A DNA stretch of 64,000 bases from Escherichia phage CMS-2020a. Of the stretch, positions 18,001-27,000 are shown in pieces (position 1 is the stretch's first letter; every line of letters starts with the position of its first letter). Location of the stretch: the sequence record CP054387.1, one strand, 5' to 3'. Made by a program: the position numbers.

Positions 18001-21000
18001 ATTCAATCAATCCATTCTAACTTAAAGTATGGTAGGGAGTACTATTAAATCTTATATCATAATTGAACTTATCTATATCATATCTGAGTTAGTTTTGTTA
18101 CATGTTATTAGTCGTTTTTCTCCATTAATGAATGCTGATTGGTTAATATTTGTGCCTGTAGAAAAAATGATTATATCTTTACAACCCTAACCTTTGATGT
18201 AATATCGGTAAGCACTTACCAGAGAGTTTAACGCGCAAAGGTCGCAATAATGTCTGACAAAAACATTGAATTTATAGAAAGTCGCTATGCTGCTTTTATC
18301 GCAGGGCTGATTGAATCCTCACCTATGAGTCAGGCCCAAATAGCCAGACTTATTGGTTATAAAAATGCCAACAACCTTTCTTTAATTAAAAGTGGTAAAA
18401 TTCCTTTGCCTATCGATAAGGTTCGTCCGCTGGCGTTGGCGCTGGGTATTGAGCCAAGTCGTCTTATGATGATGGTGCTGGAAGAACGCCAACCTGAACT
18501 CGCAGCATTTTTATACAAAGAAGGCACCGCTCCTCTTAACGAGGACGAAAAACAGGTTCTTGCTGCATATAACGAGCGATTCGGTAAAGAGAAAGGCGCA
18601 TCACAAAAGGTTGTTGAGGCCATAAAGTCTCTATGAAAAATTTAGACGAATAAGCTCTGTTGATAGACGATCTCCCTTGAATTTGTGGTCAATTTCGTCT
18701 AAATCCGGTTGCTCTACGATTGATGCGATGTACGTTGAGAAACTTTCTAAGGCGTCTCGCATCTCGTCCATATAATCGTGCCGGTCGTAGACCCGATCTA
18801 TCCCCTCAAGACTGTGGTTCATTATTTTGCGTGATACCTCCTGGCTTATACCTAATGCTGGGAAGTAACTACGCGCAGTACGACGCAAATCTCGAGGTGT
18901 AAATGGCGCAAGCTCCATCAGTTCTGGTCGTTCCAGAATACGACGTAATGCCTGGGCTATTGCCACTTTAGACATAGGAAGGTCTTTCCCGATTTTTTTA
19001 TTCGAAGGCACGAGCCACTGGCTGTCTTTACCGTATTCGAACAACTCTTCAATGCATGTGCGCATTAATGTGCTTAAAGGCAGCGAATGCTCACGTGCTG
19101 ACTTGTTTCTCTTGCCTTGATTCCAAACTCCACGCTTAAGATTGAACTCACTTTTTTTAGCCCTCAGTACTTCGTCAGGTCGTCTTGCTGATACAAGACA
19201 CAGCCTGGCCGCCCATTTTGTACCAGCGCACACATTGAAGTAGTCCCATATATTCCAGAACACCCATACCTCTGCGTCGGTCAGCTTCCGCTCGCGAGGT
19301 GTGGGCTTTGCGCCACCGGCAACTTTGTTTAGTGACATATCGTTTAACGGTGACACGTCTATCATCCCTTGGAAGGCGCACCAGCTAAGGAACTGCTTCA
19401 TCAGAGAGAAAACGCGGCGGCCCATAACAATTTTGCCATCCAATATTAGAGGGTTGACCAGTTGGTTAACCATGAACCTATTAATGTCACTTACTTTTAC
19501 ATCAGCAATGTGCGGCAAAACATGTATCAAAATACAATGAACAGCGATCTCTGGCCGACGTCTGGTTATCAGCAGAGATAAGCGAGTGAATAACATGAAT
19601 GCGTCCGAGAATATCATGTTATTGTTGATCTGTGAGATCATAATGGCCTGCATTTGAGATGCTCTTTCGAGATACTCAATTGCCTCTTTTGAGGTGTTTT
19701 CTGCTGCGCGTGCTCTGTCAAAGCTATTTTTCATTTATTGGCATTCACCTAGTTACGCTGATCACCTGTATAAGTAACCAGTATATTAGGCATTGATTCT
19801 TTTGGAATCAAGCTAAAATCTTTCATGCGGAAAATGATTCCATACCTAAAGAGTATGGAATCATTTTTTTCTGTAGAGCTAGTTTTAAATATTTGATTCG
19901 ATATGAAGCCAGGCAATTTCATGCCTGGCTGTTACTTTGTGTTAGGTTGGGTTGTTGATGCTAATGGTAAGTGTTTCGATAGCAAGATCATGAGTTTGGT
20001 TGTTTGTTATATCTGTTAAAACAAAAGCCTCATCACCAAGAGCAATATTGTCTTTAACCAGCTTGAATTTACTCCCCGCCTTGCCATCGAGAACGGGAAT
20101 TACAGTTCCTGTGCCTTTCTCATATTGCAACTCAAGAGTGTGCCAATTGTTGTCGTAGTCACCATATGAGTCTATCTGAACATTTCGATTATTGCCTGTC
20201 CTGTGCATCATAATGTTCAACTTGCCTCCAATTGTTTGAAGGAAGAAGTTAGCCAGAAACAGGCTCCCAGTACCGTCGAATGATATATCGTCAGCAACAG
20301 GTTTACTGGTTTTGTAATATATACCAAAGCCAAACTTAGCTTTTTTTGGATCAGGGTTTCCAGATAATTTAAACTTACAAAGTAATTTACCTCCATTCTC
20401 AAGAAGAGTCTGTGCTATGTCAGTAGCTTTACTGATCGTCCAAGTTTCGTTGGAAACCGCTTTAGTTAAAGCAATTGCTTTTCCGTTTTCAACTGACTGA
20501 ATATTTGCACCAGTTACAGTCCATCCTTGTTCAGTAGCGACATCACCACCAGCTCCAGTTAAGGAAATAACCGTTCGCGGGGTTGGAGTTGTGACAATGT
20601 TGTCATTTTTAGGTTGAGTAGGTTGTTCTTGTTTAATAATCTCACCTGTAACGCCATTCACAAAAGCAGATGATTTCGCTGAATGTGCAAGCAGCGCAGT
20701 TGCGAGACGATCAGATATTATTCCGCGTCGCTGCCATGAACCAAAATGACTCTCTCTACTCTCGGAAGTCCATGTTTTATTATCCTTGCGATGACCGGAA
20801 CCATAATAGCCAATAGATGTGATGTCTGGATCATCTGTAGGGCTATTGGTTAATACGTTATTATCATTCTCATCTTTCATGAATGGAACGAAATAAATTG
20901 CTTGTGAGGTTTTTCCCTTATAACCACCATAAACAATTTCGTACTGTTTTGGATATTTGTTTTTCCACCAGTGGGTCGTATCGCCACAAATCCAGGGTAC

Positions 21001-24000: not shown

Positions 24001-27000
24001 ATACACACGCTTTCCGATGCACAGTGTTTTGGTTTTAAGTTCCTGCTTAATTAAATCACGACAGATGCCGAAGCCGATAAGGAAGCCACCCATAAAAGCT
24101 AATGAGATGTATGGAATCATTTTAACGCTCCTGATTCTACTAATTGCTGTAGCAATACTTTCCCTTTATCAGTTAACTGGTAGTTGGCCGAACACCACGT
24201 TTCAGAAACGTTTGCAACCAACCCTAACCGCTCTAACTTAGCCCGCGTTTTAGGCTTCCAGTACTCAGGGAACTCCGACCACTTACTGATTTCATAAAGT
24301 GTTTCCTTCTCCCGTTTACTTAATACGATCATCCTTAATCTCCTTCACGGTGTTGGTTATTTCTACAATGCGATAAATGCGACCGCGTCTTTCTATAACA
24401 CCGTTTTTAATGTAGTCATTAATGCAACTGGACATCACCACAATACCGATTAAAAAACCAACCGCTAAAAATGCAATCATCCAGCCGAGCATCATTCTTT
24501 ATCTCCGATTCGATCTTCTGTATCGCGTAAGCAACGCGGCCATTTCAGTCGTGGGTGGCGTAAGCTGCCGTCCGGTGTTTTCTCGTGACAATGAACCTCG
24601 ACAATACGACCACGGTACTTCTCTTTGTTGTTCCAGATCTCATCCAGATATTTATGCTTAATGCCGCTCGCACGAACGATGACGCCGTTTTCAAGACGAA
24701 TAACAATTTTTCCAAGTGTGTTGGCAAAACCAGAGTCCGGGTCGCCCGGCTCAAAGTCGATAATTTCACCATCTTCTGAATCTTCGTCTTTTAACTTCCA
24801 CCAGCTGCGGGTACGTTTAAACTCGTAAACAGAGTTCGGATCTTTGCCCATCTCCCCTTCTTCGTTATCGTCCAGGCGTTTCATGAAGCGTTCGATGAAG
24901 TCTTCGTGGCTATGGATGATATAGAACGGATGCAGGTGAATGTCTTGTGTGTAGCCTTCACTGCGATCGTTTTTGAACAACGCCACCAGCATAGCCAGGC
25001 GCTCTTTCAGCTTCATACCTGTCTTTGCATACTCTTTGGATTTAGCCTGTGCTCGCCATTCCGGTAGGAAGAAGTCGAAAACATGATAAATAGCGCCAAT
25101 TGCCTGCACGTTCTTTTTGCGCAATGCAGATACGGACTGGTTAAATGAACCGGCTGTTCCTTCACCATCGAAGAAGATGTGTTTGTGGCCTGAAAGTTTG
25201 CCTAATTCGAGCATGGCTGGCTTTAGGTGATCGAGAGACGTGATTGGATTACCAGTACGAGAAAGGAAGTTAACCTCCTCCTCGTCAACAATAACCTCAC
25301 AAATTACTCGCAAACCATCGAGCTTAAGGCTGCCAATCATCGGCCATTTGGCTTTAGGATTTGGCTTGAAGGGGTATTTGTCGCCTTTTTCTTTATACGG
25401 TGACGCCAGCTGCACCTCGAATTTCGGAATGGGATTTTCAAAAACCTTGTTACATAGGCTAATCCCAACGCCAGCTTTCGGATCTTTTAAGAGGAAACGA
25501 CGGAAGACGTCCTGCCCATCGGCGCACATTGACGCCACGATAGACTCAACAGCAACTATTGCTGCGTTCCCCGTCAGCTCGCGAGAGGCCAGCTTATTCA
25601 GTACATCAATGGCTTTTTCGTCACTTGGGACGGACTCACTAAGCGGCTCTGCCACTTTGTATTTCTTTACCCCAAAACGGATGAAAGGGTTGAGCATCAA
25701 TGAAACCATGCTTTGTTCAAAGTCATCCATGTTGGCCAATGCCTCTTTTTTTGCATTGGTTCCCATAGCCTTCATTTCGTCCAGCTTATGTTTAAGTGCG
25801 ATCAACTTTTTCATTGTTGTTTTGCCTCCATATGTTGATCGATTTGCTCATGTGTTTCTTTTGTTGTTTCTTCAAGCAACGCCGCATACACGTCAGTGAT
25901 CGCTGTTTGTGATGTGGCGCTCTTCTTAACCATGCTATTAATCGTTACACTGTCACGCTTTCGTTTTATAGTTCTGGCTTGTTTATTCCGTTCTTCAACC
26001 TCCTTAATGAGTGCGGTCATATCTTCGAAATACAGAGATTCTCCTTTACGAATCTCTTCAACCATCATTTTTAACGCCTTGCATTTGCCTGCTTTGATAG
26101 CGGTTGCGCACGACTGGAATGAAGTTCGAGGAAGACGGTTTTCTTTGAAGGCAAGAATGGTGTGCTGGCAAACGGAGTAGCTGCAATATGCCGACTCACC
26201 GTTTATCTTTACTTCCTCACAACGAAGTGAATAACCATTATTTCCTGAAATAGAGGGGATTTTTGACAAATCAGCTTTCACAACCACCGCCACAAATAAT
26301 CTTGTACTTACCTATCATTCTTTGCGTAAAAAACGACACACTGAGAGATTACCAACTTCCCCAGCTAATCATCTTGCGCTGATTGCTTTCTAAGCGATAG
26401 GGGGCAAGAAGCTCTGTGACATGATTGGTGGCGTATGATTTAGCCTCTTGCTCTATCATCGGTAATTCGTTAGCAATCCTGACCACCTTCCCAGCAAATT
26501 CCGCCATTACGCCATCACATGCCTTCCCAGCATCAATAACGATATGCACCAGATCCAACTGGCTTTTGCACATGTCGTAAAGAGACGCATACTCACTCTC
26601 TCTGATTACATTTACGGCATCATTAGCCCCTTTATTAAGCAAGACTTCCAACAGGTTTGTCGGGGTAACGAAATCGGCTTTAAGTGACAATGTTCTCTCA
26701 CCTTTTATCGACCGTAAGTACTCTTCGTAGTTTTGCTTGTCTTCCAGCAAAACTAAGCTATGCATAGTTAGAAGTGATTCTTGAATAGCCTCTTCAATAA
26801 TACTGTCATTTGACGCACAAAAAACGGTATTTGTGTAGATCACTTTGCCATCCATCCATGCCCCAACCTGCACTTTAAGACTGATCGGGTTTTCTTTGCT
26901 AATAAAAACAACTAATGCAGAACGCCGTGCACAAGAAGGTTCACCCCATACGTGTAACTTAACCTTCAGATAAGGTAGCCCCGGTAGCGGGATCTCGACC

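Follow-up and report, generated by a model that had tools for sequence, protein, structure and literature searches.

A 35-bp inverted repeat beside a tyrosine recombinase gene, in a phage-plasmid of the SSU5/pHCM2 type, is very probably the lox-like crossover site of that recombinase. The repeat occupies positions 19832-19866 of a 64,000-nucleotide stretch of Escherichia phage CMS-2020a (sequence record CP054387.1), referred to here as the window. Single copies of its arm, termed orphan copies, are found at a distance, inside genes and between them. These copies are strongly conserved, which by their pattern of variation appears to reflect selection on the DNA or RNA sequence itself, and they are most likely bound by monomers of the same recombinase. 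The combined reading, in which the repeat is the core recombination site of the adjacent enzyme and the orphan copies are accessory or regulatory binding sites for its monomers, is considered rather probable. The assignment of the core site is based on anatomy, conservation, co-variation of arm and enzyme, homology breakpoints and copy number, while binding, catalysis and biological role are inferred.

The inverted repeat as a candidate crossover site

The 14-mer AAATGATTCCATAC occurs in four exact copies in the window, two of them forming the repeat and two standing alone (Table 1). A sequence-only reading had reported these four copies, with some ends placed one base off, and had considered them unlikely to arise by chance. 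Both statements stand: none of 100 dinucleotide-preserving shuffles gave a match, and a chance origin is rejected. A larger duplicated block, the other origin that reading had raised, is rejected because the flanks of the copies are unrelated to one another. Its inventory was incomplete, as a fifth copy of the 12-mer core ATGATTCCATAC is present at 13805-13816 on the + strand (the 14 positions from 13803 read TAATGATTCCATAC) and a degenerate copy, TTGATTCCAAAC, with 10 of 12 matches, lies inside the recombinase gene at 19116-19127. The rest of the replicon was read from the near-identical plasmid p09EL50, whose 46 kb outside the window contain no 12-mer with up to one mismatch. Therefore, all copies fall within 10.3 kb around the recombinase gene.

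The repeat consists of perfect arms of 12-14 bp around a 7-bp spacer and lies 98 bp upstream of the recombinase gene. Its conservation was followed in two sets of relatives. A scan of viral contigs for the pattern ATGATTCCATAC-N7-GTATGGAATCAT yielded 101 loci, in which the recombinase gene, where present, has 64-99% nucleotide identity and the site lies 96-101 bp upstream of its start codon (about 180 bp for the clade that has diverged most). An unbiased set of 80 loci was anchored on a CobT-like neighbour (CobT identity 45-99%, recombinase identity 57-100%), and the layout is repeated in every sufficiently complete locus of this set. The 12-mer arms are invariant across the 101 and the 80 loci. 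The spacer varies by lineage (ATAGTAG, TTAATAG, CTACCAA, CTTACAA, TATATAA, TTACATA, CTAAAGA and others), with its length fixed at 7 bp. In the core sites of tyrosine recombinases the protein reads the arms, and the spacer needs only to match that of the partner site. Invariant arms with a lineage-specific spacer of fixed length are thus the pattern expected of such a site.

The same perfect arms could form the stem of an intrinsic, perhaps bidirectional, terminator, the single copies then being coincidence or a result of protein-coding constraint. T-runs follow the stem in the window (TTTTTTT on the + strand, TTTT on the - strand), and the RNA fold reaches -23.3 kcal/mol (z = -6.4). However, a T-rich tail follows the stem in only 10 of 55 distinct contexts, just 4 of the 12 stem pairs are G-C, and the terminator scan did not pick it up. 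Chance is excluded by the shuffles, and coding constraint cannot account for the monomorphic synonymous sites or the intergenic copy described below. The conserved feature is a protein-sized arm, not terminator anatomy, and a terminator is judged very improbable.

The enzyme encoded beside the repeat matches PF00589 (E = 1.1e-9). Residues R185, K211, R284/R285 and Y316 are invariant among 26 family members and H307 is found in at least 90% of them, their roles being assigned by analogy. An AlphaFold2 model (predicted local distance difference test score, pLDDT, 85.9) starts with the helices of a core-binding domain and fits the two-domain fold of lambda Int, with core-binding and catalytic domains. 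Foldseek matches with probability 1.00 include lambda Int 75-356 bound to the COC' core site, Tn1549 Int, XerH, IntI and Cre. By fold, Cre ranks under lambda Int, Tn1549 Int, Xer and IntI, and the recombinase-fold repressors MrpR and SroF rank lower among the matches. No PDB chain is similar by sequence at E <= 0.01, and no sequence similarity to Cre is detectable. The family is compact (about 365 amino acids, 43-100% identity). Its nearest outgroups, at 25-33% identity, are P4-like integrases with the arm-binding domain PF13356, a domain that was not found in the recombinase or its family.

Arm and enzyme co-vary towards the edge of this family. At 43-46% identity, an inverted repeat with a 7-bp spacer is still present upstream of the gene, but its arms are altered to TGACTCCAGAC. 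These read ATGTGACTCCAGAC in Xenorhabdus, ATGACTCCAGAC in Providencia and GTGACTCCAGAC on an Erwinia plasmid (L195, 9865-9895), while a 507-kb Pantoea replicon (L201, 9952-9982) carries GTGACTCCAGAC on the left and ATGACTCCAGAC on the right. No phage genes lie near the latter two loci. The helix-turn-helix (HTH) gene that neighbours the recombinase gene in the window is absent from both, and the repeat therefore tracks the recombinase gene and not the HTH gene. As judged from these sequences, recombinase gene and putative site are a portable two-part module. On the Erwinia and Pantoea replicons, the module is surrounded by metabolic, transporter and H-NS genes.

The repeat also marks a border. 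Of 15 pairwise comparisons, 14 show homology to the window stopping where the right arm ends on its outer side (19865-19867); the fifteenth is with the window's own lineage. Homology resumes at about 22001 in 11 comparisons and farther right in three. Since homology stops at 19866 and resumes at 22001, the cargo of the window is taken to be 19867-22000. With a Cyrano-type query, alignments to 208 E. coli plasmids break off precisely at the arm edge in about half of the cases, and two mosaic loci (L114 and L134) have 96% identity left of the site and 76% beyond the cargo.

The full site is found in 208 of 5426 complete E. coli genomes, intact, once per record and always on plasmids; none of the 5426 carries it on the chromosome. 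Seven species-representative genomes have it, only on contigs of 12-169 kb. A close homologue is also carried by an 896-kb contig, which belongs to the places grouped as having for the most part the same neighbouring genes. These counts bear on another interpretation, in which an integrative phage would use the repeat as its phage attachment site (attP), with the single copies serving as arm-type or secondary sites of attachment. The gene is indeed annotated as 'integrase', its catalytic domain is nearest those of P4/lambda-type integrases, and phage-plasmids may, as a general statement, alternate between plasmid and integrated states (PMC7969092). Against this, there are no chromosomal places in the E. 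coli genomes and 208 intact plasmid places, the species-representative occurrences are limited to contigs of the sizes given, and the recombinase has no arm-binding domain. Unlike arm-type sites, the single copies have the very sequence of the core arms and are kilobases away. A chromosomal attachment site (attB) and integrated forms were rejected, as none appeared in the E. coli genomes or the species representatives. The absence of the site from chromosomes argues against a role in chromosomal integration and favours Cre/lox-like maintenance, which leaves attP an improbable assignment.

Several observations concern the repeat and its surroundings. In locus L003 (9847-9853) the spacer alone is reverse-complemented relative to L119 and L046 (CTACTAT versus ATAGTAG), the plasmids being otherwise identical over 331 bp save two single-nucleotide polymorphisms. 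A second apparent flip is seen in L048, with CTATTAA, compared with the TTAATAG lineages. Template switching across the hairpin or a recombinase-related event could produce such flips. In the Klebsiella-type locus L158, the core site (5866-5896) and the recombinase start (7905) are about 2 kb apart instead of 99 bp. The usual 40-bp gene-side flank is retained there, which suggests an insertion, possibly an insertion sequence element, between promoter region and gene.

On the cargo side, the right flanks of L001-L104 and window positions 19867-19900 mostly have a T-run and then GAA(A/T)T..TCTG, 8-12 bp past the right arm. This element is TTGAAA-like and resembles a -35 hexamer, despite otherwise unrelated cargo-side flanks, and several relatives transcribe their first cargo gene outward from the core site. 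It may be an outward promoter or an accessory element belonging to the site. Within the cargo of the window, a G+C-rich hairpin (AGCCAGGC...GCCTGGCT) at 19907-19930 stands just past the stop of the esterase-like gene and before the core site; the actual terminator of that cargo gene is probably this hairpin.

Orphan copies of the arm

The same three orphan positions, A, B and C (Table 1), carry the motif across the CobT-anchored sample, and the conserved unit is ATGATTCCATAC followed by AT(C). The 15-mer at copy A, ATGATTCCATACATC, is invariant in 37 distinct contexts. Copy C is invariant in 34 of 36, two close relatives reading ...CCATAT, and copy B in all of about 38 except that of SSU5 (...CCGTAC). 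At copy B, 14 nearly invariant bases stand amid flanks with majority-base frequencies of about 0.3-0.9. A fourth position, at 19116-19127 in the recombinase gene, reads TTGATTCCATAC and then A, without variation among 14 distinct contexts, in Klebsiella, Salmonella and Enterobacter-type relatives. This copy is present in most non-E. coli clades and has decayed to 10 of 12 matches in the window.

The invariance of the motif includes synonymous positions. On the coding strand, copy A reads G/GA TGT ATG GAA TCA T/TA, for G-C-M-E-S. The codons TGT, GAA and the six-fold degenerate TCA are each the only codon used in the 37 contexts, while 25 of 27 flanking polymerase codons for conserved residues use at least two synonyms (hypergeometric p of about 0.003, ignoring shared ancestry). 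At copy C the codons ATT and CCA are monomorphic in 36 contexts, and conserved residues downstream use at least two codons. In locus L168 (about 6952-6975), copy A is immediately followed by a tandem duplication of 9 bp (ATGATTCCATAC ATCTCATAC ATCTCATAG), which adds three polymerase codons.

The orphan copies share a facing. The spacer side points towards the core site in five of five independent positions, namely A, B, C, the recombinase-gene copy and position 15754 of L003, with a two-sided chance of about 0.06. Phage PhiR41_1 has lost the block with B and C, yet a single orphan copy is present on that side, within unrelated cargo. Orphan copies do not coincide with homology breakpoints in the 15 pairwise comparisons. 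A degenerate partner arm at 7 bp from the orphan copies was considered and rejected, as by eye no more than 4 of 14 positions match.

The sequence-only reading had proposed either a family of recombinase half-sites or a shared translational-control element. The first proposal survives for the inverted pair, which has the anatomy, position, conservation and co-variation of a core site, and for the identity of the singles to one arm; it is less secure as regards recombination at the singles, which have no second arm beside them, and no inversion junction is seen in about 194 plasmids. The second was not borne out. Copy C does contain, as had been described, the ATG and the MIPY codons of an open reading frame (ORF) of 50 amino acids, and AGGAG lies 7 nucleotides upstream, but it is the only copy at a real start codon. 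Copy A is antisense in the polymerase gene, copy B is intergenic with no ribosome-binding site, and the putative transcripts of the neighbouring genes appear to include neither arm of the inverted pair.

A broader version of this idea places the motif at the RNA level, as an antisense or translational-control element whose inverted repeat is a hairpin. Copy A is antisense to B and C, so that polymerase and peptide-operon transcripts are complementary over a 15-nucleotide perfect duplex, and conservation at synonymous sites suits constraint on RNA as well as on DNA. Nevertheless, the repeat lies outside the putative recombinase and cargo transcripts, copy B has neither a ribosome-binding site nor a conserved ORF, and no Rfam family matches the motif, Rfam having found tRNAs only. 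Action through RNA also leaves the linkage to the recombinase and the co-varying arms of distant members unexplained, and is quite improbable.

One-armed recombination sites are known from the shufflon of R64, where Rci acts on sfx sites. The orphan copies could belong to a similar inversion switch, as each has one conserved arm with a partly conserved 'AT(C)' and copy A is inverted relative to B and C. All of the roughly 80 loci are collinear, however, and the predicted AxC and AxB inversion junctions were not found in about 194 plasmids. Inversion would disrupt the polymerase gene, and the 'spacers' of the single copies are unlike the core spacer. Such a switch is barely credible here.

The motif might instead be purely regulatory, an operator read by a transcription factor (the recombinase-fold protein itself or another protein of the module), with no crossover at the inverted repeat. 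The repeat is 20 bp from a putative recombinase promoter, which has 8 of 12 matches, under the threshold of the scan tool, and whose hexamers and spacing recur in the Citrobacter locus L197; on its other side are the T-run and the -35-like element. Upstream of the tRNA cluster, a promoter-like match (TTCACA-18-TACATT) shares bases with copy B. MrpR, a protein of the tyrosine recombinase fold, binds a dispersed 15-bp element (PMC10516654), and both MrpR and SroF are among the fold matches. Phage SSU5, described as virulent, lacks exactly the HTH-plus-recombinase module. An operator is less consistent with the catalytic-type residues conserved in the family, whereas MrpR lacks crucial catalytic residues (PMC10516654). 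Moreover, copies A and C and the recombinase-gene copy lie within coding sequence and not in promoters, only B and the inverted repeat being near promoter-like sequence; none was found at copy A. The module on non-phage plasmids comprises the gene and the inverted repeat only, and homology breakpoints and mosaics fall exactly at the site. A purely regulatory motif is thus regarded as unlikely.

Proposed mechanism and genomic setting

The mechanism proposed for the core site follows from the workings of the tyrosine recombinase family. One recombinase monomer would bind each arm of 12-14 bp, and two sites would pair. Tyr316 would then cut at the edges of the 7-bp spacer, with strands swapped through a Holliday junction. 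The role would be the resolution of plasmid multimers and perhaps the circularisation of phage DNA. As a by-product, recombination between co-resident relatives with a shared spacer could make the site the fixed edge of a hotspot of cargo exchange. Recombinase monomers at the orphan copies would have an accessory or regulatory role. In a variant, which is distinctly unlikely, a catalytically intact recombinase would also read the orphan half-sites, which would be a one-protein analogue of Tus/Ter, or of FtsK-orienting polar sequences (KOPS), combined with dif, monomers bound there acting as polar barriers or guides that focus the end of replication, or of transcription, on the resolution site; alternatively they would be a dispersed regulon with the recombinase as a regulator of lysogeny.

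Several points weigh against the core-site and accessory-site reading. An operator for autoregulation would give the same conserved arms and fixed spacing near the putative recombinase promoter, and the T-run after the repeat in the window is terminator-like. No replicon with two full sites was found, nor any cassette with sites on both sides, and the far cargo edge at 22000/22001 has no convincing site, only a 7/12 resemblance. In the altered-arm lineages, the 10 kb on either side contain no orphan copy of the altered arm, and the polymerase has not kept the residues that overlap copy A. The link between orphans and recombinase is consequently one of arm identity and proximity. Finally, SSU5 has no recombinase gene, yet A and C are exact in it, and its B is the only variant seen. 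Relatives 99% identical to SSU5 indicate a recent deletion, and therefore SSU5 weighs little either way (p of about 0.09 at best).

The deletion in SSU5 (L105, 12597-12762) corresponds to 17690-22830 of the window and removes a 70-amino-acid ORF, the HTH gene, the recombinase gene, the core site and the cargo. The CobT-like gene of SSU5 abuts tRNA-Asn, a junction that is unique among the phages and plasmids, the nearest plasmids being 99% identical. Loss of this block may account for its description as virulent.

Table 1. Position of the motif copies and neighbouring features in the window
Feature	Coordinates	Strand	Remarks
Left arm of putative core site (AAATGATTCCATAC; invariant core ATGATTCCATAC at 19834-19845)	19832-19845	+	Exact match
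7-bp spacer CTAAAGA, presumed crossover region	19846-19852		Length always 7 in relatives
Right arm of putative core site, border of variable cargo	19853-19866	-	Homology to relatives stops here
Putative recombinase promoter TTGATT-17 nt-TAATAT	19783-19811	-	Read by eye; 20 bp from left arm
Orphan copy A (15-mer ATGATTCCATACATC at 13805-13819)	13803-13816	+	Antisense in DNA polymerase III alpha gene, 5' part
Orphan copy B	23097-23110	-	Intergenic, about 200 bp upstream of tRNA-Asn
Orphan copy C	24109-24122	-	Start codon and first codons (MIPY) of 50-amino-acid membrane peptide gene
Degenerate copy TTGATTCCAAAC	19116-19127	+	Inside recombinase gene, VWNQ on opposite strand
Tyrosine recombinase ('integrase') gene, 367 amino acids	18631-19734	-	Pfam PF00589, weak PF22022
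HTH (XRE-like) gene	18250-18636	+	Weak HTH_19 and HTH_37 matches; 'putative repressor' in Cyrano annotation
DNA polymerase III alpha gene, hosts copy A	10551-14069	-	Relatives annotate dnaE / DNA polymerase III alpha
Lineage-specific cargo, starting directly at right arm	19867-22000		Homology breaks
Esterase-like cargo gene (SASA/DUF6645/DUF1737)	19942-21855	-	Pfam
50-amino-acid membrane peptide gene, begins with copy C	23968-24120	-	Annotated coding sequence in Cyrano and SSU5

Over a 7-kb test stretch (18000-25000), the window is 100% identical to the Shigella sonnei plasmid CP022461.1 and 99.9% identical to p09EL50, a plasmid of E. coli O104:H4. Phages Cyrano and CMS-2020a have about 95% identity, covering 60-63% of the stretch. 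The HTH and recombinase genes are arranged tail-to-tail with a 6-bp overlap and form one module. Rightward from the inverted repeat are the esterase-like gene, four tRNA genes, copy B and an operon for small membrane peptides that contains copy C, whose ATG overlaps the stop of the preceding 71-amino-acid ORF as ATGA.

The 50-amino-acid ORF and a second ORF of 59 amino acids (24316-24495, - strand) look like paralogues. Each has a single transmembrane helix followed by G(K/R)R(V/I)YR(V/I)V(H/E)E, and both are part of the operon of small ORFs with ATGA overlaps, downstream of a DNA ligase gene. Window positions 24344-24490 are missing from some relatives.

The tRNA complement differs among close relatives. 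The interval between tRNA-Ser and tRNA-Thr (22362-22649, about 290 bp) has 93% identity to the upl/plp region of phage P1, which points to exchange between two different phage-plasmid families. Between tRNA-Thr and tRNA-Asn, a tRNA-Tyr at 22738-22824 is not in phage Cyrano, and its Rfam score is 43.5 bits, compared with 66-75 for the other two tRNAs detected by Rfam.

Phage-plasmids of the SSU5/pHCM2/pMT1 type, which carry resistance and virulence cargo, are common in E. coli, Klebsiella, Salmonella, Enterobacter and Yersinia. If the proposed reading is true, they encode a new compact lox-like system, with two arm variants (ATGATTCCATAC and TGACTCCAGAC) and many natural spacers from which orthogonal tools for genome engineering could be drawn. 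It would explain why the variable cargo region of these plasmids always begins at the same base. It would also mean that recombinase-binding motifs can be selected inside unrelated coding sequences, and would give a simple recombinase an accessory or regulatory layer of a new kind.

Comparison with known systems

In the literature searched, the 12-mer appears in no relevant paper and no recombinase site of SSU5/pHCM2 is described. The conserved, inward-facing orphan half-sites in coding sequence are a variant that could not be matched to any described system, though separate features of it have counterparts. Plasmid tyrosine resolvases include ResD/rfsF of F and Rsd/crs of pSDL2, and TnpI/IRS systems are found in Tn4430 and Tn5401. 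The arrangement here resembles them in that a large plasmid carries a recombinase gene with its putative site alongside. TnpI systems use additional single copies of the motif bound by the recombinase as accessory sites, classically within about 100 bp of the core; Tn5401 also has such copies at its two ends, inverted and kilobases away from the core. The orphan copies of the window differ in being 3-6 kb away, inside essential genes, and in not bounding a mobile unit.

The XerCD/dif system with its Ter and KOPS elements offers another likeness, a resolution site flanked on both sides by asymmetric elements that point to it. Ter and KOPS are bound by Tus and FtsK, respectively, and their sequences are unrelated to dif. 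Here the polar elements, only three or four in number, have the sequence of the core-site arms themselves. Integrons (IntI/attI/attC) are more remote, as the site here occurs once per replicon with none at the far end of the cargo, and IntI is a distant fold match only.

MrpR, which has a tyrosine recombinase fold, reads an element of about 15 bp dispersed over the genome of a temperate SPbeta-like phage (PMC10516654). MrpR and SroF thus share with the present case the combination of a recombinase fold and a dispersed element of that length. MrpR, however, lacks crucial catalytic residues and its sites are in promoter regions (PMC10516654), whereas here catalytic-type residues are kept and most orphan copies are in coding sequence.

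The closest parallel is Cre/loxP of P1, together with Dre/rox, Vika/vox, Nigri/nox and Panto/pox. In both cases the host is a phage-plasmid, the enzyme is a lone tyrosine recombinase with no arm-binding domain, and the site has perfect inverted arms on both sides of a short, asymmetric spacer. It is near the gene and present once per replicon, and its presumed job is multimer resolution or cyclisation. loxP has arms of 13 bp and a spacer of 8 bp, compared with a spacer of 7 bp here. The two enzymes also have no detectable sequence similarity, lambda Int and Tn1549 Int being the best fold matches of the present one. The conserved half-sites kilobases away have no loxP counterpart, and activity in the present system is predicted. 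A search for lox-like sites beside Cre-like genes is the approach of earlier work (PMC4957104; PMC3553980). The role of Cre/loxP in P1 is documented, and phage-plasmids can be expected to require multimer resolution or cyclisation (PMC7969092). A Cre/loxP-like job is most likely for the recombinase and repeat described here because the enzyme has no arm-binding domain and the site, present in single copy and on plasmids only, moves with the gene onto non-phage plasmids.

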